Positions 10,139 to 40,948 of a stretch of DNA of 64,000 nt are shown here, piece by piece. The notes under the pieces are model-generated. The model saw only the letters and a list, made by a program, of their open reading frames with translations, searched no databases and had not been told where the DNA came from. Source of the DNA: Ostreococcus lucimarinus (lineage: Eukaryota); the NCBI GenBank assembly GCA_000092065.1, contig CP000596.1; one strand, written 5' to 3'. The first letter of the stretch is position 1, and each line of letters opens with the position of its first letter. The translations under genes were made by a program, and so were the position numbers.

Positions 10139-13000
10139 ATGTCGCGAATCGCCGCGCTTCGCGCGCTCGCGCTCGTCGCGTGCGTCGCGACGCTCGTCGA
10201 TCGTCGATGCGGCGTCCCGTCGTCGTCGTCGGCGTCCGACGCGACGGCGTTCGACGAGTCGCGCGCGCGCGCGACGGCGCGCGCGCTCGAGGCGCTCGGC
10301 GCGCGACCGTGCGGGACGCCCGCCGAGGCGCGCGGATTCGCGACGCTCGAGCGCGCGACGACGACGATGGCCGAGGCGCTCGCGCGGGACGCGGGCGCAC
10401 ACGGCGTCGCGTCCTGGACGACCGCGGAGACGCGCGCGACGTCGACGTGGACGAGCGAGGCGTACGAGACGACGTACGCGAACGCGACGGCGACGACGAC
10501 GAAGGCGATGAATCGGGACGCGATCGAGCGGTTAGGGTACGACGAGCGCGTGGTCGTCGTGAGCGCGCACGTGGACACGGCGCACGCGAGCGCGGGCGGG
10601 AGCGACGCGGGAGCGTGCGCGGCGATCGCGCTGGAGACGATGCGGGCGCTGTCGGCGCGAATCGCGGCGGCGGCGAACGAAAAGGCGAAGAGCGGAGGGA
10701 CGGCGTCGCCGGTGATGTGCGACGCGAAAGCGCGGCGGTGCGCGTCGGTGGTTTTGACGTTTAGCACGGCGGAGGAGGACGGATTGGCGGGCGCGCGAGG
10801 GTTGACGGCGTCGCGGGAGTGGGCGCGGCGAGCGCCGCAGGCGATTTTAAACCTCGAGTCGATGGGCGCGGGCGGGCCGCATCGAATGTTTCAGGCGCGC
10901 GCGGACACGGCGGTCGGAAGGCAGGCGCTGCGCGCGTGGGCGCGCGTCGCGCCGCTCGCGAGCGGCGGCGTCTTCGGAGACGATGTGTTCAAGTCGGGGT
11001 TGATCAACAGCGGCACCGATTACTCGGTGTTTCGGAAATTTAGCGACGCCGAGGCGCTGTTCGATTTCGCGTTCGTCGAGCGCACGATGGTGTATCACAC
11101 GCCGCGAGATCGGGTGAAATATATCCGGCCGGGGTCGTTTAAGCATTCGGGGGAGAATTTGCTCGAGTTTTTATCGGACTACGTCACGCGCGGCGGATTC
11201 GAGAGCGAAGGCGACGACGCGCGCGCGACGAAATCATCGCCGCCGGTGTCGTGGTACACGATCCCTGGATACGGCATGGTGGTGCACGACGCGCCTCGGC
11301 GCGAGACGCACGCGGTCTTCTTCGCCGCGCCGCTCGTCCTCTTCGCCGCGTTTTTGCACAAGGCGTACGTCGGCGAAATATTCGCCTCGTCGTCGGCTTG
11401 CTCCGAAGCCGCGCGCGTTCGCATGGAAAACACGTTTCGACTCATGGTGAGCGTCCCGTTCGTCATCGCGGGGTGCGCCGCGAGCTGGATGGGTGCCATC
11501 GCATCAGCCGCGCTCGCGCCCGCGACGGTGGCGTTCGCGTTCGGCGAGCCGAGTTTGTACGTCGCTCGTCCGCTCGCGCTCGGCGCGCTCGCGGGCTCAG
11601 CCGCGTGTCTCGCCTTCATCTGCGTTCAAAGGTTCACGCGCATGCTCGCGTTCGCGATGATGCCCTTACCGGTGAAGATGAAATCGAACGCCGACGACGA
11701 GCGCGTCGTCGAGTGGTCGCTGCTTCTGGGAAACGTCGCGATTTGGGGCGCGGCGGCGTCTCGCGCGACGCGCGCCGAGATCGGCTCGTCCTACATCCCG
11801 CTGCTTTGGCTGATATTGCCGTCGTCCATAATCATCGCGCCGGTTCTCGTGCCGTGGATTCTCGCGCATGGTCGATCGAGCGAAACGGAAGCCGCGCCGC
11901 CGCCGCCGACGCCGATGAACGTCGCGTTCGCCATCGCCGCGCCGGTGTGGATTACGTTTCCGAACGCCGCCCTCGTGCTTCGCGTCTTGCAAGGCATCGG
12001 CGCGCGTTCGCCTCTGAGTGATGATATCGTGTATCTCTACGACGCCATCGGCGGCGCCGTGGTCGGGATCTTCGTCGCCATGACGTGTAGCTTTTTGGTT
12101 CCGGGCGCGGTGGCGAAGGAGGACTCGGCGTCGTGGCGGCGCGGCGCCAGGATCTCAATCATCACGCTCGCTTCGGCGTGCGCGTATACCGTGGTTTTCA
12201 TGCGCGCGAACGCGGGCGTGCACTGGACGGCGTTGTCGCCGCAGCCACTGGTCTTGACGCACATCTCCGACGCGTCGTTTTCTCGCTCGCGCGTCGTGTT
12301 GGCGCGCGCTGGAGCGTCTCGCACGCGACGCGTCGTCGAGCACCTCGAATCCAACCCCGCCATCGCTCGCGCGTTCACGTTCGATTGCACCGCCAACGCG
12401 ACGTATGATTTTGTGAACACCGTCGTCAGGGGCGCGTGCGTGATCGATGCGAAACAGAAGACACCCGGCGTCGACGCGCTCGCGATGGAGGCGAGAGCCA
12501 CTGGAGCGTCGCCGCCGAAATTTACGACGCCGCGCCAAAGACACGCACCGAACGTGCGTTCGGTGACGATGGACGTGGGCGAAAGCACGCGATGGGTGCT
12601 CGCGGTGGACACGCGGTGCGTCGCTCGCGTCGCCATCAAGGCGCTTTACGATGAAAACGACGACGAATCGCCCGAGCAATGGGTGCGCGTCGAGCCGTAC
12701 GCGCCCGGCGGCAAGAAACGACACGTGCTCAACGGCGTCGGCGGCCTCTCGGCGCCGTCGACGTACGCGATTTGGTATGAAACGCGCGACGCGGAGACGC
12801 GCGCTCGTTACTTTTCGAGCGACGACGAAGCGCAAGCGCGCGCGTGCGCCAAAGGCTTGCGCGCGCGAACGGATTACGTCGCGCGAACGCCGAGCGTCGT
12901 CGCCGTCGACGCGGCTTTGCCCACATGGGCGGTGCCGTTCGGTAAACATCGAAGCCCGCAATGGCTAGGTTTCGTAGAAACGCACGATGTGTTGAATTGA
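10139..13000 (+). CDS. ER metallopeptidase 1-like (M28 peptidase domain plus polytopic membrane domain, ERMP1/FXNA type)
   Basis: ATG at 10139 (MSRIAALRALALVACVATLV, signal/anchor). The M28 metal-binding region reads VVVVSAHVDTAHASAGGSDAGACAAIALE. The C-terminal half has about 9 hydrophobic helices. The first 30 codons of the listed ORF are Arg-rich read-through. Confidence 0.75.
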   Translation: MSRIAALRALALVACVATLVDRRCGVPSSSSASDATAFDESRARATARALEALGARPCGTPAEARGFATLERATTTMAEALARDAGAHGVASWTTAETRATSTWTSEAYETTYANATATTTKAMNRDAIERLGYDERVVVVSAHVDTAHASAGGSDAGACAAIALETMRALSARIAAAANEKAKSGGTASPVMCDAKARRCASVVLTFSTAEEDGLAGARGLTASREWARRAPQAILNLESMGAGGPHRMFQARADTAVGRQALRAWARVAPLASGGVFGDDVFKSGLINSGTDYSVFRKFSDAEALFDFAFVERTMVYHTPRDRVKYIRPGSFKHSGENLLEFLSDYVTRGGFESEGDDARATKSSPPVSWYTIPGYGMVVHDAPRRETHAVFFAAPLVLFAAFLHKAYVGEIFASSSACSEAARVRMENTFRLMVSVPFVIAGCAASWMGAIASAALAPATVAFAFGEPSLYVARPLALGALAGSAACLAFICVQRFTRMLAFAMMPLPVKMKSNADDERVVEWSLLLGNVAIWGAAASRATRAEIGSSYIPLLWLILPSSIIIAPVLVPWILAHGRSSETEAAPPPPTPMNVAFAIAAPVWITFPNAALVLRVLQGIGARSPLSDDIVYLYDAIGGAVVGIFVAMTCSFLVPGAVAKEDSASWRRGARISIITLASACAYTVVFMRANAGVHWTALSPQPLVLTHISDASFSRSRVVLARAGASRTRRVVEHLESNPAIARAFTFDCTANATYDFVNTVVRGACVIDAKQKTPGVDALAMEARATGASPPKFTTPRQRHAPNVRSVTMDVGESTRWVLAVDTRCVARVAIKALYDENDDESPEQWVRVEPYAPGGKKRHVLNGVGGLSAPSTYAIWYETRDAETRARYFSSDDEAQARACAKGLRARTDYVARTPSVVAVDAALPTWAVPFGKHRSPQWLGFVETHDVLN

Positions 13001-20388: not shown

Positions 20389-23300
20389 TTAGATCTCGGC
20401 CGAGGTGGAGACGTCGAGGATTCGACGGCGAATGACGCGGTCGGCGACGGCGAGTTGGGCGTCGGCGACGGAGGCTCGAACGGCGCGAATCGCGGATGCG
20501 GTCGTGGCGATGATGGCGATCGCGCCGAGAGGCGATTTGGGGGGTAACGTTCCCGCGCGAATGTGCGCGGAGAGGGCGTAGATGGCGTACACGGTGGGGA
20601 TGGCTTGGAAGACGTAAAAGGCGACGACGGCGAGGCGTTGCGACGCGGCGTACGCGACGGTTTCGTAGTGAGGAAAACCGCTCGCCGTTCGGGCGAATGT
20701 GCGGAAGTGTACCGTGGCGTCGCGGAGTTCGGTGATGAGCGAACACGCGATTGCGACGACGAAAACGTCGTGGTGCAACGCGAGGAGCGTGACGGCCAAA
20801 GCGACGACGCGGCGAAACATCTCGCCGCGCTCGCGGCGGGCGCCGTCGACGACGACACGACCGACCATCACCATGACGTACACCTTGAGTAACTCCACCG
20901 CAGCTAACTTTCCAGCCTGCTTTCTTTCGTTCGGAAGTATCCACGAGATGGCGGCGGCGCGCACGTTTTGCGTGTCGTCGATGAAGCGATACGCCGCCGT
21001 GCCGACGGCGGCGGCGACGACTGCCTTGGTCAACGGGACGCTGAGCGCCAAGGAACGTTCCATGAGCGTGCCGTGTGCGCTCGATGCTTCGGCGAGCTTG
21101 ACTTTACTAACCTTTTTACCGAGCTGCGGCAACGCCACGCTCGAGACGACGGCGGCTAAGAAGGTCGCGCAGCTAAAGACTGCGACGACGCCGACGAGCA
21201 GAGGCACAGCCATCGGGAGCATTTCCGTCACTGTTGAAGGATTGCGCTGCGCGAACATCGCACAGATGGCCACTACCACGGCTAAGTATTGAAATTCCGG
21301 CGCGATGGACGAGGTAGAAACCTCGCTTCTAGATGCATCGTCGCTCTTCTTGACCCACGTCATTTGCAAATCGTAAATCAACTTGTTCGCAAACGCAGCC
21401 TCGCAATACGCAAAGTAAAACTCAAACATGCGCAAAAACTTTCGTGAGTAGCCCATAGAAAGGATTCGTTGGGCGTGATGCATCATACGCTCGCGCCACA
21501 ATCGCAAAGTGACGGCATAATGCAAGCCGATATCGTCGTATCCCTCGAGCACGAGACCACGCGGCGAAGCGCTCTTCATCGCCCCCACCGACGGCAAGTG
21601 GCCACCTGGGAAAATGTACGCACGAATGAAGTCGCTTTCACTGTTGCAGTATGACTCGTAGCGGCCGTCCGGCATAGTGATGACTTGGATCGCGGCTCGC
21701 CCGCCGGGTTTCAGCACTCTGTGCACGGTGCCAAAGAACGTCGGCAAGTGTTCGTGTCCGACCGCCTCAAGCATTTCAATCGACACCACCTTGTCGAACG
21801 TTCCTTGCACATCGCGGTAGTCACAAATGACGATGTCGATCAAGTGTGACAAACCGGCGGCTTTGACGCGCGCCGTTGCTTCGGCGTGCTGCTCGTGCGA
21901 CAGTGTCAAACCAGTGACATGGCAATTCTTCTCGCTCGCCATGCGAATCGCGCACGTCCCCCAACCGCAGCCAATCTCAAGCACGCGATCGCCTGGCTTA
22001 ATACCCGCTCGAGCGATCATGGCGTCTATCTTTAAATACTGCGCCTCTTCCAAGTGCTTTTCTTGGGCCTCGAACGTCTTGAACTTCTTCAAAACGTCTA
22101 CGGACATCGCAGCGTCGTCGATAGCGCCGTGAATGGCGCTCGAGTACAACATGGTGTCATCCAAAAACAGCTTGTAGAACTCGTTTCCAGCGTCGTAGTG
22201 GTACTCTATGTTTTTACGAGATCCTTCTTTCGTGTTACTTAACGCCTTGTGTGCTGCCATCTCCATTTGCGCTCCTACCCAGTTAACCGCCTCCGTGAGG
22301 AGACCCACTGGGTCGAGACGCATCTTCGGCTTACAGCTCTCCGTCTCTGCGCCAGAAGCCGCGGGATGGCCTTTGCAAATCATGTCCATGAACCCAATTA
22401 AATCCACGTCGAAATCTCCGTTCATATAACACTCACCAAGACCGATATCTGCGCGCAAAATCGTTTGCATGAAGAGTCTTTGGTTGAATACCGTCATGGT
22501 AATCGTCTCCGACGACGCGTTGGCCTCTTTACCCATCATAAGACGTTCGCTTCCATCCGGTAAAATCATGCGGAGTCGTTTGTCGGCTGGTAACCACCCC
22601 ACGCACGCGCGCTGGAAAAGCGGTAAGACCATCTTCGTGCTCATGGACAACTTTGGATCGCACGACCGCGGCATCCACGGCACGGATGACTTGCCGAGCA
22701 TTTTGTCCACACAATCAACCGCTGATTTGATACCATCCTCGTGAAATCCGTAGCCGCACCACGCGCCGCAAAACCAAACCCGGTCTTTACCTTGTAACGC
22801 CTTGATCTCCTCCTGCGCCGCGATCGCGGCTTTGTTAAATAACGGATGCGCGAGCGTGACTTTGTGTTCGACCGAGCCTGCCTTCGGCTCGCGCGGCGGG
22901 TTCAGCGTGACGAACAAATCCTTCGTCCCAGGGGCGAGGTTTTGCAACAAGTTGACCCAGTAAGTCACACAAACGCTTCGATTTGCGGCTTCTTCGGCGG
23001 GAATGCCTAAGCGATCGCCGCGAAGGCAGTTCCACGATGCCCAGGCATCTTTGTTCCGCGGCATCATTGTTTCGTCGGTGTGCAAATACACGTCATTCTC
23101 TTGATACTTCACCGCCGACAGAGCCGAGACTTCTTCCTCGCTCGCAGCTTTGCCAAGTATTTGTAACGCTTGATCGCTATGGCACGCGAAAACGACGTCG
23201 TCGAAAACCTCGGTGGACTCCTGAACTTTTCCCTTGGCGTCCTCTGTCTTAAAAGTCACGCTCACGCCCCCCGCCACGCGGTACACCTTGGTCACGTACG

Positions 23301-24072
23301 CGCCCTTACGCACGTCTTTGAGCTCGCGCTCAACGGCGTCGACGTAAGCGCTCGATCGACCACTGACGACTCGCCAGAGAGGTCGCTCGATGATGTTTAA
23401 TAAGTGATGGTTCACCCAAAATCGTACGAGCGTGCGCACTGGGAACGCCATCGCGTCGTCGTCGCTGCAGCTCCAAATCGCCGCACACATCGGCACCACG
23501 TACGACTCTTGAAAGAACGCCGAGTACTTGCGAGCTTTGAGGTACTCACCCAAAGAGACGTCCGCGAACTCGCTCGCGCGTTCCGGCGCCAAAACCTCTG
23601 GCGCCTCGCGACCAAAACGTAGAATCTCCCGAATCATATTCAAAAACCGTCCGCTCATCGCGTTCGACTTTTGCGCGAACACGCCTTTCAGTCCTATGCT
23701 CCCCCACTCGACGTCTCCCGTGGACAATGAAAACGACATGTCGCTCGGTTCGCTCTCGACGCCGAGCTCGCCGAACAGGCCCACCAGGTGCGGGTACGTC
23801 GTCAGGTTGAACACCTGGAAGCCCAAATCCACGTCGCACTTCGCCGTGCTCGAGTATTGCGTCAGTGCGTGTCCACCGAGCTTCGTCGACGCTTCGAACA
23901 GCGTCACCGCGCCGCACGAGGGCGTCGAGGGCGCGCTTTGCGCTTTTACACTTTTTGGTCCGCCGCCGGCGTCGTCGGCGTTCTTTTGGAGTAAATACGC
24001 CGCCGACAGGCCGCTGACGCCGCCGCCGATGACGGCGACGCGTTTACCGCGTGTGGTGGCTTCGTCCTTCAT
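20389..24072 (-). CDS. FAD-dependent amine-oxidase domain fused to cyclopropane-fatty-acyl-phospholipid synthase (plant CPA-FAS type), with an extra C-terminal multi-TM domain
   Basis: 1227 aa. N-terminus MKDEATTRGKRVAVIGGGVSGLSAAYLL (dinucleotide-binding oxidase). Middle NIEYHYDAGNEFYKLFLDDTMLYSSAIH...VLEIGCGWGTCAIRMA...SIEMLEAVGHEH (CFA-synthase SAM methyltransferase). The last roughly 330 aa are seven or more hydrophobic helices with no family I recognise. Confidence 0.8.
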   Translation of the reverse strand: MKDEATTRGKRVAVIGGGVSGLSAAYLLQKNADDAGGGPKSVKAQSAPSTPSCGAVTLFEASTKLGGHALTQYSSTAKCDVDLGFQVFNLTTYPHLVGLFGELGVESEPSDMSFSLSTGDVEWGSIGLKGVFAQKSNAMSGRFLNMIREILRFGREAPEVLAPERASEFADVSLGEYLKARKYSAFFQESYVVPMCAAIWSCSDDDAMAFPVRTLVRFWVNHHLLNIIERPLWRVVSGRSSAYVDAVERELKDVRKGAYVTKVYRVAGGVSVTFKTEDAKGKVQESTEVFDDVVFACHSDQALQILGKAASEEEVSALSAVKYQENDVYLHTDETMMPRNKDAWASWNCLRGDRLGIPAEEAANRSVCVTYWVNLLQNLAPGTKDLFVTLNPPREPKAGSVEHKVTLAHPLFNKAAIAAQEEIKALQGKDRVWFCGAWCGYGFHEDGIKSAVDCVDKMLGKSSVPWMPRSCDPKLSMSTKMVLPLFQRACVGWLPADKRLRMILPDGSERLMMGKEANASSETITMTVFNQRLFMQTILRADIGLGECYMNGDFDVDLIGFMDMICKGHPAASGAETESCKPKMRLDPVGLLTEAVNWVGAQMEMAAHKALSNTKEGSRKNIEYHYDAGNEFYKLFLDDTMLYSSAIHGAIDDAAMSVDVLKKFKTFEAQEKHLEEAQYLKIDAMIARAGIKPGDRVLEIGCGWGTCAIRMASEKNCHVTGLTLSHEQHAEATARVKAAGLSHLIDIVICDYRDVQGTFDKVVSIEMLEAVGHEHLPTFFGTVHRVLKPGGRAAIQVITMPDGRYESYCNSESDFIRAYIFPGGHLPSVGAMKSASPRGLVLEGYDDIGLHYAVTLRLWRERMMHHAQRILSMGYSRKFLRMFEFYFAYCEAAFANKLIYDLQMTWVKKSDDASRSEVSTSSIAPEFQYLAVVVAICAMFAQRNPSTVTEMLPMAVPLLVGVVAVFSCATFLAAVVSSVALPQLGKKVSKVKLAEASSAHGTLMERSLALSVPLTKAVVAAAVGTAAYRFIDDTQNVRAAAISWILPNERKQAGKLAAVELLKVYVMVMVGRVVVDGARRERGEMFRRVVALAVTLLALHHDVFVVAIACSLITELRDATVHFRTFARTASGFPHYETVAYAASQRLAVVAFYVFQAIPTVYAIYALSAHIRAGTLPPKSPLGAIAIIATTASAIRAVRASVADAQLAVADRVIRRRILDVSTSAEI

Positions 24073-24242: not shown

Positions 24243-25625
24243 CTACGTCCACACGATGTGCCGGTCGGAGGTGACCTCGTATCGGCGCTGGTCCACGAGG
24301 CGACGCTTTACGTGGTCGCATCGAAGGTCGGGGTGCGGGAACCGCGCGAGGTCGGCCACGCCGTCGTGGTCGAAATCGGTGGCGGATCGTAATGGAATGG
24401 CGGTCGTGGCGTCGGGCCCGATTCCGAGCGCGGCTTCGGCGTTGTGCTTGGTTTCGAGGACGTGCTGGAGGAATTGTTCCTTGTCGCGCGCGTCTCCGCA
24501 ATACGACGCCGTGACGGTGTGCGCGCCTGGGAACGTACCATCGTCTCCCGCGTTGGCGGTGATGAAATTTCCCGATTCTGCGGTGCTCATGGCGTGGATG
24601 TGGAACTCTCCCGCCGTCGTCGGCACGAGAACGTAGTTGAAGTAACTCTGCTCCGGAAATTCGCCGTAGTTCACCTTGGATACTAATCGACTCTCCCCCT
24701 CGAGCCATCGCTCGCACAAACTCACGCTCCGCGTCGTGGCTGGGAAAATGACGAGCTTCGTGTTCATGTTTCCTTGCGCCTCGAACTCGTTACCGACGTC
24801 TGAGCTCACGACGACGTCGTACTTTTCGAGCGCGCTCGTCCACGCTTCGGTTGGATCGGACAAAAACACCGTGTCCGAATCGAGCATCACCACTGGGATG
24901 CGCGCTTTCAGTAATTCTAAGGCCGCGTGTACCTTGCGCCACGACATGGCGTCGCGCGCGACGCCATCGTTCGGATCTTGCCCGTACGCCCGCGCGAAGT
25001 CGGCGTCGTAAAAGCAATCCACGCCGCGATGCGCCTCGCACGATCGCTGCGTCTCCGTGTCGTACGTCAGCACCGTGACGTGCGGCAACAACGCCGGTGC
25101 CCATCGTTTAACGCTCTGAATCTGCAAATACGTCATCCCCCACTCGAACGGCTTGGTGAGGATTAATATCCGCGCGTCGTCGCTCGCCCGCTGCGTCTCT
25201 CGCACGTGCGTCCGCAGCCCCGGCACGCCGCGTCCCGGCGACCGCAGTCCCGGCACGCGCGTGCGCAGCGATATCCTATTTATCACATCCGCCTTCGCCG
25301 GCGCCCGCATCCGCGCTTCCGCGCTCAACGGCGCTCCGAAAAAGTTCCCTCGCTCGTTCGCCGTCCCGCCCAGCCTCGCCGTCGCCCTCGATCGCCCCGC
25401 CGCGCCCTCTCGCACCGCCGCGACCGCGAGCGCGCACGCCAGCGCGACCGCCACCGCGACCGCGATCCCCGAGCCGCGCGTTCGCGCGCCGATTCGCCTC
25501 GCGCGGCGCACCTCGGCGACGCGTTCGTCCTCAACACCATTCGCTTCCCGCGCGCGCGACTCCGTCCCGTACGCCGTCGACGCGCCGCGCGCCATCAGCC
25601 CCGTCGCGGGGTCCTCGCTCGACAT
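24243..25625 (-). CDS. type-II membrane glycosyltransferase, nucleotide-diphospho-sugar transferase (GT77 / Nucleotid_trans-like)
   Basis: ATG at 25625 (MSSEDPATG..). Short cytoplasmic tail, then TM GIAVAVAVALACALAVAAV. The lumenal domain carries PVVMLDSDTVFLSDP (a DxD-type motif) as in plant GT77 RGXT/XEG113-like enzymes. Confidence 0.65.
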   Translation of the reverse strand: MSSEDPATGLMARGASTAYGTESRAREANGVEDERVAEVRRARRIGARTRGSGIAVAVAVALACALAVAAVREGAAGRSRATARLGGTANERGNFFGAPLSAEARMRAPAKADVINRISLRTRVPGLRSPGRGVPGLRTHVRETQRASDDARILILTKPFEWGMTYLQIQSVKRWAPALLPHVTVLTYDTETQRSCEAHRGVDCFYDADFARAYGQDPNDGVARDAMSWRKVHAALELLKARIPVVMLDSDTVFLSDPTEAWTSALEKYDVVVSSDVGNEFEAQGNMNTKLVIFPATTRSVSLCERWLEGESRLVSKVNYGEFPEQSYFNYVLVPTTAGEFHIHAMSTAESGNFITANAGDDGTFPGAHTVTASYCGDARDKEQFLQHVLETKHNAEAALGIGPDATTAIPLRSATDFDHDGVADLARFPHPDLRCDHVKRRLVDQRRYEVTSDRHIVWT

Positions 25626-25822
25626 CTCCGCGCGTCGACGCTCGCGCGCGCGCGCGTCGCGGTGTGCCGCGCGCGTCGCCCGCGCGCCGCGCGAAGATGT
25701 CGTAACACCCATCGACGGCGCGACACAAATCGTCGCGCGAGCGCGCGCGAGCGTCGCGCTCGACGCCCGGCGCCGACTCGAGCGACGCGCGAACGCGATC
25801 GACGCGCGATCGACGACGCGCG

Positions 25823-27406
25823 ATGGCGCGAACGGAGCGCACGGCGCTGCTGCGCGGCGATGAAGACGTGGAAATCGCGTTGAAAACGCGTCGCGGCGAC
25901 AAAGACGCGTCCGCGGACGACGCGCGCGAGGCTCTCGGGCGACGCGAGAGGCGCGCGCGCGAGTCGAACGGTGGCGCGGAGGCGTCGACGAGCGCGCGCG
26001 GGATGAAGACGGCGCGCGCGGTGGTGGTGGGGACGTTGGCGGCGGGGGCGATCGCGGCGGGCGTCGCGGCGTTCGCGGCGTCGCCGCGCGCGGCGTCGAT
26101 GACGGCCGATCGCGCGTTCGCGTCGCTCGGTGAGCGAGGAATGGCGATGTTGGGCTCGAGCGAGGGCGCGGGTCGCGACGCGAGACCGGTGCCGGTGCTG
26201 TCGAAACGATTTCCGGGATACGCGGCGCCGTTTAGCGGACGTTTCGAACGCATCGGCGAGTGGCCCGAGCACTGGTTGGTGAAGTGCTCGAAGCACGTGG
26301 TGTGCGAGCAATCACACTTGGGAGCGTTTTTGGGGTCTCGTGACGCGCCCGCGCCGTATGCTAACCCGCTCGGGCACGGGCTGCCGCGTGGATACGTGCG
26401 GCCAGACCAGGCGCGCATAAACGAGTTCATCTCGACGTGGGACAGCAACGCTAGACAGGCGCACGGGGGGGTGTATGAGCTGCCGCAAGCTGGCAAGGCT
26501 AAAATGGTCGCGATGGCGCATAATTCTGCGTACTTTTACAACTTTGTGCACGTGCCAAAGGCGGGCGGGTCGTATTTTTCCATCACCGTCTTGATGGAAG
26601 CCCTGGAGCGCAGCGGTGAGCATCACGGGTATCCGTACAAACTCACGCACGAGCCCGTATCGCACTGGATCACGCTTCCACAGGTGGATCTTACGCAGAC
26701 AAACGTGAAGGAGACGTATACACATTTCCAGGAAGGGAAGCCGGAGGGCATTTTTGGACCCGAAAATACCAAACAAATGTATAAAGAAGGCAAGCGGATG
26801 TTCGGAAAGGGCCAGTTCGGCATGGGACTGTGCGGAGTTATTCACGCACCGTGCGTGTACTTGACTGTGTTGCGCGATCCGGTGGAACGTTACTTGAGTC
26901 ATTACAAGTACTCGTGCTTGGCCGGGTCTGAGGGCGCCGCGCAGTGGTTACCCGAGTGGAAAGAACTCGACCGTTGCCCGTTGGATCCGATCGAGTTCAT
27001 GGACTACCTCGGACCAAACCTGGACTGGACGATCGAGCTCGCCCCTGGCGCGAAGAACGCGCAAGAGCGCATGGAGACAGCCAAAAGAAATCTCGACAGT
27101 AACTGCTTGCGATACCTCATACTCGAGAAGTACGAAGACGGGTTGGATAAACTCGGCGCGACGTACGCCGATTTCTTATTTTTGAACAAAGAGCCCGCGA
27201 AAGAAAGGCACAAAAAAAAAAACGAAAAGGCCAAAAACGCCGGGCACGGCGTGAGCGAAGGCGAGCAAGACAGGTTTGACATCTACATGAAGAACCAAAC
27301 CATCGTCGACGCCATCGCCGCGCGTCACGCAAAGATGAAGGAAGTGTACGACTACGCGGTCGCCAAATACGAAGCCAACTGGGCGCGCGCGCCGGGGAGC
27401 TGCTAA
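25823..27406 (+). CDS. type-II membrane carbohydrate sulfotransferase (Sulfotransfer_2 / HS6ST-like), paralog 1
   Basis: N-terminal TM ARAVVVGTLAAGAIAAGVAAFAA. 5'-PSB motif YNFVHVPKAGGSY and 3'-PB motif VLRDPVERYLSHYKYSCL. C-terminal YDYAVAKYEANWARAPGSC is shared with the downstream paralog. Confidence 0.75.
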   Translation: MARTERTALLRGDEDVEIALKTRRGDKDASADDAREALGRRERRARESNGGAEASTSARGMKTARAVVVGTLAAGAIAAGVAAFAASPRAASMTADRAFASLGERGMAMLGSSEGAGRDARPVPVLSKRFPGYAAPFSGRFERIGEWPEHWLVKCSKHVVCEQSHLGAFLGSRDAPAPYANPLGHGLPRGYVRPDQARINEFISTWDSNARQAHGGVYELPQAGKAKMVAMAHNSAYFYNFVHVPKAGGSYFSITVLMEALERSGEHHGYPYKLTHEPVSHWITLPQVDLTQTNVKETYTHFQEGKPEGIFGPENTKQMYKEGKRMFGKGQFGMGLCGVIHAPCVYLTVLRDPVERYLSHYKYSCLAGSEGAAQWLPEWKELDRCPLDPIEFMDYLGPNLDWTIELAPGAKNAQERMETAKRNLDSNCLRYLILEKYEDGLDKLGATYADFLFLNKEPAKERHKKKNEKAKNAGHGVSEGEQDRFDIYMKNQTIVDAIAARHAKMKEVYDYAVAKYEANWARAPGSC

Positions 27407-27438
27407 TCAGATCCCAAAATTAGAACCATAACTGTAAC

Positions 27439-27468
27439 ATCAACGCGCATCAACGCGCATCAACGCGC
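27439..27468. repeat. tandem 10-mer (ATCAACGCGC)x3 between the two sulfotransferase paralogs
   Basis: atcaacgcgc / atcaacgcgc / atcaacgcgc follows a TGTAA at 27433..27437. Confidence 0.8.
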
Positions 27469-27708
27469 TGGATGGAGCGCGCGTCCAAAGTCCAAAATCG
27501 CCGAGCGCGCCGCCGGCGCCTCCGTCTCGTCGATGTCTGCTCGCGCCTCACTGCGCCGCGCGCGGCGTCTCGCGCGAACGCCCACGGCTCGAACGCGCGT
27601 CTAAAACGCTTTCGAGCGCGAGCGACGCCTCCGCGTTCGCGAGCGATCGCCGGCGACGCCCCGAGCGACGATCTCTCGCGGCGGGCGGGGCGTAACACCC
27701 TCTGGACG

Positions 27709-29157
27709 ATGACGAAAGAAACGAGCGCCCACAACGCCGAGCGCGCGCCGTTGGTCGTGAAAACCACCGCGCGCGATGCGGTGGACGTAGAGATTGCCGA
27801 TCGCGCGCGTCACGCGGGCGGTGAAGGCGAAGCAACGCCGACAGCGCGAGGAAAGTGGTCGATCGCGGGCAGAGCGGCGTTGGCGGTGGCGTGCGCGACG
27901 TTCGCGGCGGTGGGCGTCGCGCGCGCGTCCACCGTTCGTCGCGGTGGTGAGGTCGTGACGTTGTTCCCCGAACTAGGTGGGGTTTCGGAGTGGCGCAGGG
28001 ACTTCGTGGCGGGGAAGATTGCGCCGGGGCGGAAGTTTAGCGACACGGTGCCGAGCAAGACGTGCGTGCGACAAACGAGCCGGAATAGATTGGAGGACGT
28101 GGAAAAGTATTACATCGTGAGGGCGATGAATCACGAAAACGAGCTGCATAAGGGTAATAAAACGATCGCGGCGATGCCGACGTACGATCACATAAAGGCG
28201 GAGTCGATGTTCATGACGGGCATGGTGAACAAGAATTCAGAGTCGCCGTACATGTTGCCGTCAAGCGGGTACGAGAAGAGCATCAAGCAGTCCGGAAACT
28301 CGGCGATGATGTATAATTTCGTGCACATTCCCAAGGCTGGGGGGACGTACTTGTGCGAAGTTTTGCAGCAGGTGCAATCTCATTTGGACGCTCGACACGG
28401 GAGCGTCTTTGGAAATTACAACCTGTACCGCGACCCATGGTCCATGAAACCGCTCTTAGACGCCACGTCGCGCAATGTTTGGCAAACCACGCATCTCATG
28501 AAAAGTAAGCTCAAGGCGTTTACCGACGAAAATCTGGCGAGAGGCTACGCCAAGGGCCAGCGGATGATGTCGAAGGGGTCGTATAATATGGGCTTGTGCT
28601 CAACCACGGAGGCGCCGTGCATGTACCTCACCGTTTTACGAAATCCCTTTCAGCGCTTTATGAGTCACTACAAGTATTCTTGCCTCGAAGGCGCGGAGAA
28701 CCGAGCGATGTGGATGCCGGCTTGGAAAAAGCAAGGCTCGTGTCCACTCAACCCATTGGAATGGTTTTACTTCACGCAAGGCGACGATTGGACGCATCTG
28801 ATCGCCCCGGGGGCGTTCCCGCGTGACTCCCAGTGTCACATCGACGCCGCGAAGAATAATTTAATGAGTGGTTGCATGCGATACTTGATCACGGAGAACT
28901 TGCACGACGGATTAGCCAAGCTTAAGAATAAGCTTCCAGATTTCGCGACGTTGGATCTCAACGCCGTCAAGTCGCTCTTCAAGAATGACAGCGCTGGTCG
29001 ATTAACGCCGGCGCTGCAAGCGAGGTTGAAGCGGTACGAGGAAGATAAGAACATGATGCACCAGATCAAACAAGGACTGTGGCATCAAACGAAAATTTAC
29101 AACTTTGCCGTAGAGAACTACGAAAAGTCGTGGGACAGAGACATTCAGACGTGCTGA
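27709..29157 (+). CDS. type-II membrane carbohydrate sulfotransferase (Sulfotransfer_2 / HS6ST-like), paralog 2
   Basis: ATG at 27709 (MTKETSAHNAERAPLVVKTTARDAVDVEIADR, parallel to the paralog-1 N-terminus). TM AALAVACATFAAVGVA. Motifs YNFVHIPKAGGTY, VLRNPFQRFMSHYKYSCLEG, and C-terminal YNFAVENYEKSWDRDIQTC. Confidence 0.75.
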   Translation: MTKETSAHNAERAPLVVKTTARDAVDVEIADRARHAGGEGEATPTARGKWSIAGRAALAVACATFAAVGVARASTVRRGGEVVTLFPELGGVSEWRRDFVAGKIAPGRKFSDTVPSKTCVRQTSRNRLEDVEKYYIVRAMNHENELHKGNKTIAAMPTYDHIKAESMFMTGMVNKNSESPYMLPSSGYEKSIKQSGNSAMMYNFVHIPKAGGTYLCEVLQQVQSHLDARHGSVFGNYNLYRDPWSMKPLLDATSRNVWQTTHLMKSKLKAFTDENLARGYAKGQRMMSKGSYNMGLCSTTEAPCMYLTVLRNPFQRFMSHYKYSCLEGAENRAMWMPAWKKQGSCPLNPLEWFYFTQGDDWTHLIAPGAFPRDSQCHIDAAKNNLMSGCMRYLITENLHDGLAKLKNKLPDFATLDLNAVKSLFKNDSAGRLTPALQARLKRYEEDKNMMHQIKQGLWHQTKIYNFAVENYEKSWDRDIQTC

Positions 29158-29227: not shown

Positions 29228-30391
29228 CTAGACCGCAGCCGAGCCGATGCCGCCCGTTGTGGCGGCGGCGATCCCCTCCCGATACGCCTCGGCGCGCGCC
29301 TGCTCGAGCGTGTGCCCGCCGCTGCGGAACGAGCTGTACACCCAGCGAATAGCCAAGACGGACAAGACGGAGTCCGCCGCGAACAGCAGCATGACGATGG
29401 TGTGCATGACGCCAATGGTCTTGTTGCCTTGCAGCGCTTCGTTGAGATTCAATATTCCGCACAGCGACCATTTCTGCGCGCCGAACATGTTCGGCGGCGC
29501 CAGGGTGGCGAAGAAGACGAATCCGATGTGCACCATGAACATCAAGAAGAACCAAAGGAACCCGAACGCGCGGTCGGTTTTGCACGAATTATAAACTCGT
29601 CTGTACCACAACATGTAGGCACCGGGGATGCCACACACCATGTATATGAACGCCATGAGAAACGCCGCGAAGTCCATGTGCAAGAACATGCGCGCCATGG
29701 CCACGAAAAAGTTGCTCACGAGGGCGAGCGCGAAGACGCAGTACACCGTGTAACAGAACTTCACGCACGATCGGTGCTGCGGATGAATCTCGTCGGAGAT
29801 GTTGTGGTACGTGAACGCCCAGAACGAGAACGGCCAGTTCGGCGTCTTCCCTCCCCCTCCGCTTCGCGCCGACCGCTCGCGAACCTCCAAGTCGCGCTCT
29901 CGCCGTAAAATTTCCGCCTCGCGACGCTCGAGGTCGCGTCGCGCCGCCGTCAACGTCGCCGCCGACGCGCCACCGCCGCCCGCGCTCGTCCCCATCGCGC
30001 CTTGCGTCCCCCCCACCGCGGACGCGGACGAAGACCCGCCGCCGAACGCGCCCTTAAACGCGCTCGTCGCCGATCGAAACGCCGACCGCCCGCCCTCCGC
30101 GGCCGCCTCCACCCCTCCCGTCGCCCCAGCCCCCGCCGCGACGTCGTACGCCCCGAACGTCGAGTGCGGCGCCCCCCCGCTTCCCACCGCTCGCTCGTAC
30201 GCGCTCTCCGGCATCGGCACGTCCGGCAGCGTCTCGCCGACCCCCCCCGCGCCGCCGCCCTCCGTCGTCGTCGACGCCCCCTCGAACGGGTTACTGAACC
30301 CATCCTGCGACTCGTCGCTCGCGCGTCGCGCGCGTCCGCTCTCGAACGGGTTCGACGCCCGCGCGGGCGTCGTCTCGAACGGGTTGCTCAT
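29228..30391 (-). CDS. secretory carrier membrane protein (SCAMP)
   Basis: Three N-terminal NPF repeats (SNPFETT, SNPFESG, SNPFEGA), a coiled-coil stretch, four TM helices, and the conserved inter-helix peptide LWYRRVYNSCKTDRAFGFLWFF. Confidence 0.85.
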   Translation of the reverse strand: MSNPFETTPARASNPFESGRARRASDESQDGFSNPFEGASTTTEGGGAGGVGETLPDVPMPESAYERAVGSGGAPHSTFGAYDVAAGAGATGGVEAAAEGGRSAFRSATSAFKGAFGGGSSSASAVGGTQGAMGTSAGGGGASAATLTAARRDLERREAEILRRERDLEVRERSARSGGGGKTPNWPFSFWAFTYHNISDEIHPQHRSCVKFCYTVYCVFALALVSNFFVAMARMFLHMDFAAFLMAFIYMVCGIPGAYMLWYRRVYNSCKTDRAFGFLWFFLMFMVHIGFVFFATLAPPNMFGAQKWSLCGILNLNEALQGNKTIGVMHTIVMLLFAADSVLSVLAIRWVYSSFRSGGHTLEQARAEAYREGIAAATTGGIGSAAV

Positions 30392-30623
30392 TCGAACGCG
30401 TCGGATCGAATCAAATCTTCAAATCTTCAAATCTTTCGCAAATCTGTGCGCGTTCGCGCCCCTCGCGAAGCGTCGCGACGGATTCGCGCGTAAAGCGTCG
30501 CTCGTGGGCGTCCCGCGTCTCTCCCGCGCGCGAACCCGCGGCGGCGCGCGGCGTCAGCGCGCGAACCGCGTCGCGAAATGCCGAATCCGCAGCGTCACTG
30601 CGCGACGCCGATCGATCGACGAC

Positions 30624-33206
30624 ATGGCGCCGAGCGACGCGCTGACGCGATTGCTCGAAGAAACCCCGCTCACGACGGACGCGTGGGTGCAGTGCGATTC
30701 GTGCGAGACGTGGCGCCGCGTCCCGCGCGTCGTCGCGGACCGGTTGGGGGAAAACACGGCGTGGTTTTGTCATCAGAATTTGGATCAGAAATTCTCGACG
30801 TGCGACGACGCGCAGGAGCTGAGCGACGACGAGATCGATCGGTTGATGCGCGCGCAGGCGCATGCGGCGACGAGCGCGGCGAACGGTGAGGACGCGTGCG
30901 ATGGGGATTCGAACGCGAGGGCGCGCGGGCGCGCGGTGACGAACGAGTGGTACAGGACGACGCGAAACATATTCGCGCACCGAGCGCCGAGGACGCCGTC
31001 GGAGGACGACGCGATGATCTGCGCGTGCGCGCCGGAGAGCGGCGCGGGGTGCGGGAGCGATTGTTTGAATCGATTGGTGCTGAGCGAGTGCGATCCGGCG
31101 CACTGTCCGTGCGGGAGCGCGTGCGGGAATCAGAGGATGAGTCGGGGGGAGAGCAGAGCGACGACGGTGCGACGAACGGGGAAAAAGGGACACGGGTTGT
31201 TCGCCGCGGAGCGCGTCGGCGCGGGGGAGTTCGTGTTGGAGTACTGCGGGGAGGTTTTGCACGAGGAGGCGTACAAGGAACGGAAGCGGCGGTATCAAGA
31301 CGAGGGAAGGAGTCATTATTACTTCATGACGCTGTCGAGCAGCGAAACGATCGACGCGACGATTCGAGGAAACGAGGGGCGGTTTTTAAATCACTCGTGC
31401 GCGCCGAATTGCGAGACGCAAAAGTGGATGGTTCGCGGGGAGCTGTGCATCGGAATATTCGCCACGCGAGACATCGAGGAGGGGGAGGAGCTGACGATCG
31501 ATTACAAGTTTGAGCGCTTCGGTGAGAAACCGTCGCGATGCTACTGCATGGCGGGCGCGTGTTGCGGGTGGATCGGCGGCGCGAAAGCCGCCGAGGCGGC
31601 CAAGGCGTACAACGTCGACGGCGACGACGACGAGGGGCACGAGGACGATCCGGAGCCGATAATGCGCGAACTCGACGAGGCGCTCATCGCGCAAGAAGAA
31701 GCCAAGGGACGAGAACAGATGGCGGACAAGTACGCACCGAAAAAGGTGGCCGTCAAGGCCGAAAACAAGTCTTGGCGACCGCCCGAGGAGGTTCGCGAAA
31801 TCGAGCGACAGCGCAAGGCGACGGAACGAGACGAAAACCGCGCGGCGCGCGCGGCGAGATCGAGCGGTGGCTCCAACGTCCGTCGCGTCAAGATTCCCGC
31901 GGGTTCGTACGCGCAAAAGTGGAGCGCGATGTCCGCCGGGGCGAAGAAGCGGACCGAGGTCGATCTCACCATGGAGGAGTTGCAATCCACGACTGGGGGG
32001 TTGCGTTCGAAGGACGCCGTGTCGCACTGCGTGCAGCTTTTCAACTTGTGCTATCCAGTCGACGCCGACGGTGTGACGCAAATCAACACTCGCGATCTCG
32101 GTTTGATTCTCGAAGCGATTTCGTTGACGAAAAATCCCAGTCTGCAGCAAGAACTCGTCGGCGGCGGCGTCATGTCGTGCTTTCAAAAGTGCATCAACGT
32201 CCTCGGCGGTCCGACTGCGTCCGCGGCGCACGCCGCGCTTCAGCGCAAGATTTTGAAAATCTTGATGGATTTGATGCTTCATTTCAAAGAGTTTGTCATC
32301 ACTCGCATCGGTGAAACGAGAACAGCGGCGGGGACGCTGATGCAAGCCATCGGCGACTTGCGCGTGGCGAACGACACGCCGTTGATGAAGCTGGCGCGAG
32401 ATTTCGAGTACAAGTACATCGGCACCGGCGTCATGGGACCGATGCCCGAACGTCCGCGCGCGCAGCCTCCGCAGCAGCAGCTTCGTCGAAATGACTCGGG
32501 TTCGGGGTCGGGCGCCGGTTGGGGGATGCGATCTCCATCCACCGGTTCTTTGAATCGCTACGGGAGTTCGCCCGCGGGATCGATGTTCAACGGTAGCGCG
32601 CCGCCGCGAAGCGCGATGTCCGGCGGTCGAGGCGGCTTTAACGGTAGCGCGCCGCCAAGAAGCGCCATGTCCAGCGGCGGTATTCGAGGCGGCGGCTACG
32701 GTGGTGGCTACGGTGCGCCGCCGCAGCAGCAATCGAGCCTGTCGCAAGCGATGCGTCCGCAATCGCAAGCGTACCCGCCGCAACAGCGCGACGGCGGTTG
32801 GGGACCTCCGCCCGCCGCCGCTCCGCCGCACTCGTCGTACGACGACGGTCGAGGGATAAAACGCGCGCGCGACGAACCGCTTCGCCAGCCTCAACGACCA
32901 CGCGCCACCGCGAGTAAGCCTTTGCTCACGCAACCGCTCCCGGCGCAATTCGAAGATCCGCGATCAGAGCTCTTCGCCGACGCCGTCACCGCCTTCGTGA
33001 CGATGGAAGTCGAAGACCTCCGCGCGCCGAGCCACCCTTTGCACGATCCACGAGCAAACTACGACCGCCTCACCCAACGCTGGGCGCTCGAGGCGCTGGA
33101 AAACGAGCACGCGCAGTGGAACCAAAGCGACGCCCGGCCGCTCCCGGTGTCGCAAGTCCGCGAGCGCGTCGTCTCGCACGTCAGATCCGCCGCCCGCGCC
33201 TCCTGA
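30624..33206 (+). CDS. SET-domain histone-lysine methyltransferase of the SET2/ASH1 class with an N-terminal CW-type zinc finger
   Basis: ATG at 30624 (MAPSDALTRLLEE). CW finger WVQCDSCETWRRVP..WFCHQN. AWS region CACAPESGAGCGSDCLNRLVLSECDPAHCPCGSACGNQRM. SET domain GHGLFAAERV...RFLNHSCAPNC...ELTIDY. Post-SET CYCMAGACCGW. Long Gly/Pro/RGG-rich C-terminus. Confidence 0.85.
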   Translation: MAPSDALTRLLEETPLTTDAWVQCDSCETWRRVPRVVADRLGENTAWFCHQNLDQKFSTCDDAQELSDDEIDRLMRAQAHAATSAANGEDACDGDSNARARGRAVTNEWYRTTRNIFAHRAPRTPSEDDAMICACAPESGAGCGSDCLNRLVLSECDPAHCPCGSACGNQRMSRGESRATTVRRTGKKGHGLFAAERVGAGEFVLEYCGEVLHEEAYKERKRRYQDEGRSHYYFMTLSSSETIDATIRGNEGRFLNHSCAPNCETQKWMVRGELCIGIFATRDIEEGEELTIDYKFERFGEKPSRCYCMAGACCGWIGGAKAAEAAKAYNVDGDDDEGHEDDPEPIMRELDEALIAQEEAKGREQMADKYAPKKVAVKAENKSWRPPEEVREIERQRKATERDENRAARAARSSGGSNVRRVKIPAGSYAQKWSAMSAGAKKRTEVDLTMEELQSTTGGLRSKDAVSHCVQLFNLCYPVDADGVTQINTRDLGLILEAISLTKNPSLQQELVGGGVMSCFQKCINVLGGPTASAAHAALQRKILKILMDLMLHFKEFVITRIGETRTAAGTLMQAIGDLRVANDTPLMKLARDFEYKYIGTGVMGPMPERPRAQPPQQQLRRNDSGSGSGAGWGMRSPSTGSLNRYGSSPAGSMFNGSAPPRSAMSGGRGGFNGSAPPRSAMSSGGIRGGGYGGGYGAPPQQQSSLSQAMRPQSQAYPPQQRDGGWGPPPAAAPPHSSYDDGRGIKRARDEPLRQPQRPRATASKPLLTQPLPAQFEDPRSELFADAVTAFVTMEVEDLRAPSHPLHDPRANYDRLTQRWALEALENEHAQWNQSDARPLPVSQVRERVVSHVRSAARAS

Positions 33207-36829: not shown

Positions 36830-37819
36830 ATGCTCACCGACCCGATGACGTCCAAACCGTCGTCTGTGATGCAGTCGCAGACGCAGATGACGAGGATCGC
36901 CATGTGCGTCGTCGGCGTCGTCGGTTCTCTCATCGTCTACGGCATCTTGCAAGAACGGATCATGACGAGACCGTACGGGGTCGAGAGCGAATACTTCAAA
37001 TACAGCGTCTTCTTAGTGCTGAGTAACCGCGTGCTGAGCGCGTCGCTCGCGGCGGCGATCCTGGCGTACACGAAAGGGATGGTGCAACCGGCGGCGCCGA
37101 TTTGGAAGTATGCGGGGGTGAGCGCGAGCAACGTGCTGGCGACGACGTGCCAATACGAAGCGCTGCGATACGTGTCGTTCCCGGTGCAAACGCTCGGAAA
37201 GTGCGCGAAGATGATACCGGTGATGATTTGGGGATATTTCATCAATCAGCGACGGTATACACTGAACGATTACGTCATAGCGTCGTGCGTCACGCTCGGT
37301 TGTACCATTTTCGCGTTGTACGGCGATTTGACGCACAAGCACAGCGCCAAGAGTTCGAACACCAGCGCGAAAGGATTGATGTTAATGTTAGGCTATCTCG
37401 GTTTCGACGGATTCACGAGCACGTTTCAGGATAAGCTGTTCAAAGGATACCAAATGGAGACGTACAATCAAATGTTGTACGTCAACGGAGTCAGCGCGTG
37501 CCTCTCCGTCGCCTGGCTCTTATCCGACGGCGCGATTTGGCAGGCCCTGGAGTTCATCGCCCGTCACCCCGCGGTGTTATCCGATATCATCACTCTGTCA
37601 TTGAGTTCGATGTTCGGTCAGCTCTGCATCCTGTACACCATCAAAGAGTTCGGCGCGTTGCTCTTCGCCGCCATCATGACGACGCGACAGCTACTCAGCA
37701 TTCTTCTCAGCTGCGTGTTATTCCTCCATCCACTGACGTGGCAGCAATGGTGTGGCACCGCCTTAGTTTTCTCCGCGCTCTACGCCCAGGCGTATTTGAA
37801 GAACGCGCAGCCGCGTTAG
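36830..37819 (+). CDS. SLC35B-family nucleotide-sugar / UAA transporter (SLC35B1/HUT1-like)
   Basis: ATG at 36830. MTRIAMCVVGVVGSLIVYGILQERIMTRPYGVESEYFKYSVFLVLSNRV is collinear with the SLC35B1 N-terminus (GILQEKITRGKYG...). Ten predicted helices, 329 aa. Confidence 0.65.
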   Translation: MLTDPMTSKPSSVMQSQTQMTRIAMCVVGVVGSLIVYGILQERIMTRPYGVESEYFKYSVFLVLSNRVLSASLAAAILAYTKGMVQPAAPIWKYAGVSASNVLATTCQYEALRYVSFPVQTLGKCAKMIPVMIWGYFINQRRYTLNDYVIASCVTLGCTIFALYGDLTHKHSAKSSNTSAKGLMLMLGYLGFDGFTSTFQDKLFKGYQMETYNQMLYVNGVSACLSVAWLLSDGAIWQALEFIARHPAVLSDIITLSLSSMFGQLCILYTIKEFGALLFAAIMTTRQLLSILLSCVLFLHPLTWQQWCGTALVFSALYAQAYLKNAQPR

Positions 37820-40596: not shown

Positions 40597-40827
40597 CGCG
40601 CGTCACCGCGTCGCCCCGGCGTCGCGCCGCGCGCGCGTCGCGTCGCGTCGCCGCGCGTCCGCGTCTCGCGCGCCGGTCGGTCGGCGCGCGCGGGCGGCGC
40701 GGTCGGTCGCACACGCATTCAGTCAGACACCACATACACCACACACCACACATGGGCGCACACTTCATAATATACGTCACGCGTATCGTGATAGTCTTAA
40801 TCACATCCACAATGCGTTGACTCGCAC

Positions 40828-40841
40828 GTATATCGATATAC
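40828..40841. promoter_or_regulatory. 14-bp perfect palindrome GTATATCGATATAC in an AT-richer island upstream of HSP70
   Basis: It lies about 110 bp upstream of the HSP70 ATG inside a locally AT-richer stretch (about 40740..40845). TATA-like, possible core promoter. I saw no clear nGAAnnTTCn heat-shock element. Confidence 0.35.
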
Positions 40842-40948
40842 CGATTCCGACGCCGCGCGCCGTCGCGTCGCGTCGCGTCGCGTCGCCGCGGCGCGCCGGC
40901 GCGCCGGCGCGAAGGCGCGGCGTCGGCACAACTTTACGCGCGAGAAAC

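Follow-up and report, generated by a model that had tools for sequence, protein, structure and literature searches.

The green alga Ostreococcus, described like its relatives as having neither wall nor scales, ranks with them among the most abundant marine picoeukaryotes. In Ostreococcus lucimarinus CCE9901, three neighbouring genes at positions 24243-29157 of a 64,000-nucleotide stretch of contig CP000596.1 (this whole stretch, as analysed, is called the window) raise the question of whether such a cell has a pathway for making a sulfated glycan. They encode a GT77-type glycosyltransferase (GT77) and two sulfotransferases (ST1 and ST2), and an original prediction, made from the DNA letters, had read them as a candidate co-regulated module of Golgi enzymes. 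The analysis described here found the three genes to be uncharacterised members of known enzyme kinds, a reasonable experimental lead and a candidate pathway only. The reading preferred here, with a probability of roughly 0.45, is that they encode three single-pass, glycan-modifying enzymes of the secretory pathway, of which ST1 and ST2 would be O-sulfotransferases dependent on 3'-phosphoadenosine 5'-phosphosulfate (PAPS), with GT77 plausibly acting on the same class of glycan. The block is laid out as follows:

24243..25625, minus strand: GT77-type glycosyltransferase gene, 460 amino acids from the ATG at 25625, an open reading frame (ORF) with a match to PF03407
25626..25822: spacer of 197 bp separating the divergent genes GT77 and ST1
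25823..27406, plus strand: ST1, sulfotransferase paralogue 1, 527 amino acids
27709..29157, plus strand: ST2, sulfotransferase paralogue 2, 482 amino acids from the ATG at 27709

The window has a G+C content of 56-70%, and the ORF check placed the three enzyme genes where they had been predicted, with GT77 starting at ATG 25625 on the minus strand and ST1 and ST2 at ATG 25823 and ATG 27709 on the plus strand. Two of the ORFs have an in-frame ATG further upstream: that of GT77 extends over 24243..25712 (minus) and encodes 489 amino acids from the ATG at 25712, and that of ST2 spans 27472..29157 (plus) and encodes 561 amino acids from the ATG at 27472. These longer starts are used in some metagenome gene calls (P0020, P0091), and the shorter ones, which had been chosen originally, are favoured because the alignments of orthologue N-termini and the deposited protein XP_001421913.1 support them. 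ST2 in its 482-residue form is identical to XP_001421913.1 (UniProt A4S9D1), named "predicted protein" in NCBI and "Sulfotransferase" in UniRef; the entries that turned up for the other two genes were confined to metagenome and JGI sources ("hypothetical protein"). The CMAS, SCAMP, and transporter proteins from the vicinity group with database entries of O. lucimarinus.

Of the three enzymes, GT77 is assigned most directly. It matches the Pfam family PF03407 (Nucleotid_trans) at E=2.2e-38 and 132.8 bits (cut-off 22) over profile positions 2-208 of 208, and this full-length match, well over the threshold, bears out the identity proposed for it. Its features are the following:

25413..25469, minus strand: N-terminal hydrophobic segment, putative signal anchor (residues 53-71; Kyte-Doolittle 19-residue mean 2.71)
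24468..25091, minus strand: catalytic domain PF03407 (residues 179-386)
24873-24884, minus strand: DxD motif L248-D-S-D251, within the PF03407 domain

L248, D249, and D251 are invariant across 10 orthologues, which are 58-77% identical and include an O. tauri "Nucleotide-diphospho-sugar transferase". A word-indexed homologue search with GT77 returned mamiellophyte orthologues only and no plant GT77. The structure model has a mean predicted local distance difference test score (pLDDT) of 52, with a core of 70-89, and this core matches the retaining GT-A enzymes LARGE1, glycogenin, LgtC, and XXYLT1 (E of about 1e-6 to 1e-5), whose families are GT8 and its relatives; owing to the low confidence of the model, the fold matches serve only as support for GT-A. 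Judged by its domain and its model, the protein is classed as a retaining GT-A glycosyltransferase of family GT77. Among the plant enzymes of this family, RRA1-3 and XEG113 are extensin arabinosyltransferases and RGXT are rhamnogalacturonan-II xylosyltransferases. The GT77 of the window likewise has the full-length PF03407 domain, the DxD motif, and a type-II-like anchor of these plant and algal enzymes. Chlorophyte GT77s of the RRA and XEG113 clades were reported in all algae analysed, and prasinophytes were found to be without the GT75 mutase required for UDP-arabinofuranose (PMC3797821). Because this mutase is missing in prasinophytes, the donor sugar of the window GT77 may differ from that of the arabinosyltransferases RRA and XEG113.

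ST1 and ST2 are clear paralogues, as had been claimed, with 39% identity over 315 amino acids (E=2e-69). The motifs quoted for them, namely the 5'-phosphosulfate-binding (5'-PSB) loop, the 3'-phosphate-binding (3'-PB) motif, and the C-terminal Y[DN][YF]AV..YE..W.R..C, are all present in both proteins. The two cofactor-binding motifs lie at these positions:

26537..26575, plus strand: ST1 5'-PSB loop YNFVHVPKAGGSY, with H243, K246, and G249 invariant
28312..28350, plus strand: ST2 5'-PSB loop YNFVHIPKAGGTY, a motif match
26858..26920, plus strand: ST1 3'-PB strand-turn-helix YLTVLRDPVERYLSHYKYSCL, which fits PxxRxxS
28624..28686, plus strand: ST2 3'-PB motif YLTVLRNPFQRFMSHYKYSCL, a motif match

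Conservation was followed in two family alignments, one of 20 close sequences (A2) and one of 24 broad family sequences (A5). In both, six cysteines, one of them the C-terminal residue, are invariant, as are H243, K246, G249, R351, S359, and Y361. G248 is invariant in the 20 close sequences; P353 is invariant in A5 and kept by 19 of 20 in A2 (P0006 reads LREPV behind an alignment gap), and R356 is kept in at least 90%. The stretch P353-x-x-R356-x-x-S359 of ST1 (LRDPVERYLS) corresponds to the PxxRxxS consensus given for the 3'-PB motif of PF03567 (PMC11625862). The 5'-PSB loop of ST1 aligns with FLHIQKTGGT of HS6ST, and the His before the P-loop in HS6ST (FLHIQKTGG) is matched here (FVHVPKAGG). 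The last residue of each protein (27401-27403 in ST1, 29152-29154 in ST2) is a Cys that comes after the conserved Y..A...YE..W motif; it is invariant in the 24-sequence alignment and probably forms a disulfide pinning the C-terminal helix.

The placement of these two proteins within the sulfotransferases is less direct. Against Pfam Sulfotransfer_2 (PF03567), with a cut-off of 22, ST1 scores 22.5 bits and ST2 20.2 bits, just under it, and distant representatives of the family are equally marginal. A profile built from 20 relatives reached HS6ST at E=0.037 and HS2ST at E=2 among PDB sequences, in both cases through the 3'-PB motif only. The AlphaFold model of ST1, in which the catalytic domain (residues 195-527) is mostly above pLDDT 85, has the P-loop-like alpha/beta fold of sulfotransferases, and Foldseek ranked HS2ST first (E=1.3e-5). 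Among solved structures, the best match changes with the method between HS6ST and HS2ST, the two structure methods do not agree on the closer of the two, and neither a significant full-length similarity to HS6ST nor a clear best structural match to it was found. The label "HS6ST-like" of the original prediction thus stands at the level of the superfamily and falls as a claim of orthology, since motifs and fold are intact but the Pfam scores are marginal and the PDB matches are limited to the 3'-PB motif. ST1 and ST2 have in common with HS6ST and HS2ST, the animal Golgi enzymes for 6-O- and 2-O-sulfation of heparan sulfate, a type-II-like anchor, the Lys and Gly of the 5'-PSB loop, and the PxxRxxS helix of the 3'-PB motif, but are only 14-17% identical to them and, unlike them, belong to a clade with extra conserved cysteines, the invariant C-terminal Cys, and an acidic dileucine motif near the N-terminus. 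Green algae are not known to make heparan sulfate. By sequence, ST1 and ST2 are assigned to a fast-evolving, little-studied algal clade at the border of Pfam detection within the HS2ST/HS6ST-type (Sulfotransfer_2) superfamily.

This clade is far from small. An exhaustive profile search with a limit of E<=1e-3 retrieved at least 574 representative clusters (50% identity), of which 74 remain at E<=1e-30. The Micromonas-type members have 650-1440 amino acids and carry the sulfotransferase domain at their C-terminal end (P0124, P0127, P0128, P0133; contigs L012, 2886-6201, and L013, ~6929-11225), and their long N-terminal region has no Pfam domain. Two ORFs that adjoin the sulfotransferase genes in contigs L005 and L006 were considered as additional paralogues and rejected, since neither could be aligned with the family. 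When IMG/VR was scanned with the sulfotransferase profile, no relative was found, and a viral origin or viral relatives of these genes were set aside on that ground.

With respect to topology, the Kyte-Doolittle scan found one N-terminal hydrophobic segment in each of the three proteins and none comparable elsewhere. The corresponding features of the sulfotransferases, together with a short motif in the cytosolic tail preceding the segment, are given below:

26021..26077, plus strand: ST1 hydrophobic segment, putative signal anchor (residues 67-85; hydropathy 2.13)
27862..27918, plus strand: ST2 hydrophobic segment, putative signal anchor (residues 52-70; hydropathy 1.82)
25835..25852, plus strand: ST1 cytosolic-tail motif ERTALL, of the acidic dileucine type ([DE]xxxL[LI])
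27739..27756, plus strand: ST2 cytosolic-tail motif ERAPLV, of the acidic dileucine type, a motif match

The type-II topology proposed earlier is thus supported as far as the single anchor-like segment goes, and the luminal orientation and the compartment of the three enzymes are presumed. Conserved cysteines are found in the catalytic domains of GT77 and of ST1 and ST2 alike. The N-termini of ST1, ST2, P0002-P0018, P0122-P0126, and the L011 genes were compared for the tail motif, and 21 of the 23 full-length members of the sulfotransferase family have E-x-x-x-L-[L/I/V] among their first 17 residues (ETDSLL is a Micromonas-type example), while the remaining tail is poorly conserved. The GT77 orthologues lack the canonical acidic dileucine spacing. 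The acidic dileucine form is a signal read by adaptor protein (AP) complexes, and its presence here hints at sorting in the trans-Golgi network (TGN) and endosomes rather than to plain cisternal retention. The sequence therefore suggests an AP-adaptor-dependent, post-Golgi sorting of the two sulfotransferases.

The position of the anchor also bears on the proposal that ST1 and ST2 are protein tyrosine sulfotransferases of the plant tyrosylprotein sulfotransferase (TPST) type, acting on secreted peptides or proteins, for which we see little chance. Arabidopsis TPST is a type I protein with a signal peptide and a C-terminal anchor. ST1 and ST2 differ from it in carrying their hydrophobic segment at the N-terminus only, without a C-terminal one, and thus do not show type-I topology; no plant protein is among the 19 word-indexed homologues of ST1. 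What favours the proposal is that AtTPST is, as ST1 and ST2 are predicted to be, a green-lineage, membrane-bound, PF03567-type, Golgi PAPS-dependent enzyme, is the only PF03567 sulfotransferase of Arabidopsis, and is grouped by InterPro with HS6ST (IPR010635, "HS6ST/protein-tyrosine sulfotransferase") (PMC12506393). Similarly, a 2026 survey counted two "TPST-like" proteins in O. lucimarinus, given without identifiers, but in the same survey most chlorophyte "TPST-like" matches were without sulfotransferase domains and the known peptide substrates of TPST first appear in seed plants (PMC13074997). No identifiers for ST1 or ST2 were found in the supplements of published TPST and sulfotransferase surveys.

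Another possibility, to which we give very little weight, is that ST1 and ST2 sulfate a luminal acceptor other than a glycan, such as a lipid, a sterol, or a small metabolite, and that their resemblance to HS2ST and HS6ST reflects the shared PAPS-binding fold. The acceptor-binding regions are indeed not alignable, but membrane-anchored, Cys-rich, luminal enzymes of the PF03567 type are typically glycan or protein sulfotransferases (PMC11625862), the two genes adjoin a glycosyltransferase gene, and bacterial relatives occur in sugar-modification-like clusters. These distant bacterial relatives form tandem arrays of two to three Sulfotransfer_2 genes (L018, 2184-7434, from a metagenome-assembled genome of Denitrovibrio sp.; L017, 5779-7686, from Vacuolonema iberomarrocanum). 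The array of L018 adjoins genes for rhamnosyl- and TylF-type O-methyltransferases, a mannosyltransferase-like protein, FkbM, and radical-SAM/SPASM proteins, surroundings that look like a glycan-decoration cluster. As a guide to the acceptor, bacterial gene context was rejected as suggestive at best, the relatives being weak and distant and their contexts different, with one in a sugar-modification-like cluster and another amid housekeeping genes.

For the reading preferred here, that of PAPS-dependent glycan sulfotransferases beside a glycosyltransferase, the following course of events is proposed. An SLC35B-type transporter would import PAPS into the lumen of the Golgi or TGN, where its binding would fall to the PKAGG loop, through the invariant Lys, and to the LRDP..R..S helix, through Arg and Ser. 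Hydroxyl groups on a glycoconjugate that is secreted or exposed at the surface would then receive the sulfate, with ST1 and ST2 serving different positions or contexts, and GT77 would plausibly add a sugar to the same glycan class. Both the carbohydrate nature of the acceptor and the functional coupling of GT77 with the sulfotransferases are presumed in this scheme.

Gene order across mamiellophytes bears on that coupling. The order desaturase, kinase, CMAS, GT77, ST1, ST2, SCAMP, and SET, with GT77 divergent from the two sulfotransferases and SCAMP facing them, is kept on O. tauri chromosome 17 (L011), in a 90%-identical relative, and, to the contig limits, in L004, L008, and L023 (L004 ends after ST1 and L008 starts inside the kinase gene). 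The inner order of GT77, one or two divergent sulfotransferase genes, and facing SCAMP is kept in L001-L003, L008, L011, and L023, and the GT77-ST pair to the contig end in L004. In sum, this order was found in six Ostreococcus-type lineages and on two more distant mamiellophyte contigs. The latter, the GC-rich L012 and L013, keep GT77, a divergent and much longer single sulfotransferase gene, and facing SCAMP; in the available DNA beyond GT77 (~1.3 kb in L012, ~3.7 kb in L013), there is no CMAS relative, and L013 has different genes on the far side of SCAMP. Since the entire desaturase-to-SET block is collinear in Ostreococcus-type contigs, conservation of the GT77-ST pair within them says little and is hardly above background, and the retention in L012 and L013 is more telling. 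The adjacency of GT77 and ST is old but not obligatory.

These observations bring in the strongest competitor, which holds that the three genes are real enzymes of unrelated pathways and neighbours by descent only, with GT77 acting, for example, in protein glycosylation of the hydroxyproline-arabinosylation type and ST1 and ST2 on a different acceptor; it is rated as nearly as likely as the reading preferred here. A compact genome is its first support: ORFs take up ~88% of the window, the median divergent spacer in the window is 198.5 bp, and O. tauri shares with other Ostreococcus-type contigs a collinear block that comprises at least 10 genes. The other neighbours in the window are functionally unrelated. 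According to published counts, Micromonas has 6-10 GT77 genes and O. tauri ~8, and the literature lists ~9 sulfotransferase-annotated genes in O. tauri; at the numbers given for O. tauri, some chance adjacency of glyco-enzymes is not extraordinary. Adjacency by descent alone is harder to square with the survival of GT77-ST-SCAMP in L012 and L013 despite changed flanks, with the predicted secretory-pathway topology shared by all members, and with a PAPS-transporter-type gene within 8 kb.

Several further results count against three coupled glycan-modifying enzymes, and some of them equally favour descent alone. Linkage is lost in two contigs: L006, which is Micromonas commoda-like by its SNF2 neighbour, has the order CMAS, ion channel, 368-aa ORF, ST, SCAMP without GT77, and L005 has an ST1-type gene amid unrelated genes. 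Neither GT77 nor SCAMP was found within 8 kb of two more distant members of the sulfotransferase family, and where the linkage does hold, it may be mere background synteny of the desaturase-to-SET block. The spacer of 197 bp between GT77 and ST1 is of ordinary length against the median given above, and a five-species alignment showed no conserved block in it outside the 90%-identical relative, so that a conserved promoter element or dedicated bidirectional promoter was rejected. The Pfam sulfotransferase scores are marginal. In HS2ST and HS6ST, the catalytic base is a His within a loop that is not conserved; across the two family alignments, no invariant His stands at the position expected for an HS2ST-type base, the sole invariant one being H243 directly before the P-loop, and H360 is nearly invariant. 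A dileucine tail is atypical for cisternal residents and suggests that ST1 and ST2 may be something other than simple residents of the Golgi. A literature search gave no account of sulfated glycans from Ostreococcus. Of the module originally proposed, the old and partly kept order of glycosyltransferase and sulfotransferase genes holds, offset by the synteny of the whole block and the losses in L005 and L006; the step from a divergent promoter to a co-regulated pathway is not supported, as the spacer is the genome norm and shows no conserved motif.

All three enzymes are under purifying selection. Against the 90%-identical relative, the overall ratio of nonsynonymous to synonymous substitution rates (dN/dS) is 0.25 for GT77, 0.51 for ST1, and 0.29 for ST2, and in the catalytic parts it is 0.09, 0.38, and 0.17, respectively; for CMAS, the ratio is 0.06. 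The suggestion that the paralogues might turn out to be pseudogenes is dismissed for ST1 and ST2, and for GT77 as well, by intact ORFs, conserved motif residues, and dN/dS below 1. Of all genes in the block, the sulfotransferases diverge fastest: among Ostreococcus-type species (L001, L004, L008, L011, L023) they are 39-48% identical, compared with 62-74% for GT77 and 67-74% for CMAS. The identities to the O. lucimarinus proteins in two of these are as follows:

ST1: O. tauri 45%, L023 39%
ST2: O. tauri 43%, L023 42%
GT77: O. tauri 63%, L023 71%
CMAS: O. tauri 71%, L023 71%

In a neighbour-joining tree, the ST1 and ST2 clades (bootstrap 100 each) are sisters (94), and the Micromonas-type genes, which are single-copy, fall outside (100). 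This arrangement places the tandem duplication inside the Ostreococcus lineage and before the split of the sampled species.

Two further genes nearby were found where the original prediction had put them:

29228..30391, minus strand: gene for a secretory carrier membrane protein (SCAMP), PF04144 E=2.6e-43, tail-to-tail with ST2
36830..37819, plus strand: UAA/SLC35B-type transporter, PF08449 E=1.8e-65, 7.7 kb and five genes from the sulfotransferase genes

SCAMP adjoins the sulfotransferase gene wherever a contig reaches past the latter (L001-L003, L006-L013, L023); it is the most constant neighbour of ST and a post-Golgi carrier protein, and this adjacency may or may not be coincidence. The transporter shares the UAA family with the SLC35B2/B3 PAPS transporters and plant UTR5/UTR5B, and its putative substrate is given by database name only. 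Its land-plant orthologues, with 52-57% identity, go under the name UTR5B or "PAPS transporter", and its own names conflict, with JGI giving "adenosine 3'-phospho 5'-phosphosulfate transporter B2" (for its own 90%-identity cluster) and NCBI "UDP-galactose/UDP-glucose". Its linkage to ST is absent in the Micromonas-type contigs.

A more ambitious proposal, which we consider unlikely, is that the GT77-ST-ST trio, SCAMP, and the PAPS-type transporter form a co-inherited unit that builds a sulfated cell-surface glycan on a "naked" alga. Under such a unit, the TGN/endosomal system and not the Golgi stack may be the place where the sulfotransferases act or cycle, and their fast divergence could reflect diversifying pressure on the sulfation pattern, for instance as a determinant of prasinovirus attachment.

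Pfam annotation of 20 other ORFs of the window returned only unrelated functions, and an extended cluster of glycan or sulfur genes was rejected accordingly. Three further observations concern individual ORFs. The CMAS gene (20389-24072, minus) encodes a protein of 1227 aa in which an amine-oxidase/NAD-binding domain and a cyclopropane-fatty-acyl-phospholipid-synthase domain are fused to a long hydrophobic C-terminal region; the gene adjoins GT77 in every Ostreococcus-type contig, and the Micromonas commoda-like contig has it too, there without GT77. The 1135-aa ORF at 29799-33206 (plus) runs across the 5' half of SCAMP on the other strand (29228-30391, minus), and its true start is probably downstream of that gene, given that the zf-CW/AWS/SET gene of a related contig is called at 916 aa. 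The 850-aa ORF at 40797-43349 (minus) matches PF10712 ("NAD-specific glutamate dehydrogenase") at E=2.8e-131, and the opposite strand at 41457-43328 (plus) encodes HSP70 (PF00012, E=4e-247). As a gene, this "NAD-GH" ORF was rejected, as it is the known long antisense frame of HSP70 genes.

In the literature, the three genes have received no attention so far as a full-text search reaches: it gave no match to A4S9D1, XP_001421913, or ABP00207 and no paper discussing them. The survey of Ho 2015 lists A4S6Z1 and A4RZY0 from O. lucimarinus and Q019P5 from O. tauri, and not ST1 or ST2 (PMC4659905); the algal carbohydrate sulfotransferases it covers are predicted enzymes with presumed polysaccharide acceptors. 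According to a later review, chlorophyte sulfotransferase sequences were found mainly with PF00685 (PMC11625862). Because members of the present family score at or under the Pfam threshold, Pfam-based surveys of algal sulfotransferases miss or under-detect a sizeable family.

Prasinovirus resistance has been tied to glycosyltransferase-rich regions, and a 2026 preprint links it to sulfotransferase genes of the outlier chromosome, other than ST1 and ST2, which it described as over-expressed in virus-susceptible lines. The surface glycans of Ostreococcus are little known, and the preprint makes surface sulfation topical. If the three genes act independently of each other, the finding amounts to the correct annotation of three ordinary enzymes. 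As a conserved core-genome pair of sulfotransferases beside a glycosyltransferase, ST1 and ST2 are genetically tractable candidates for the question of a sulfated glycoconjugate in this alga and of its purpose.

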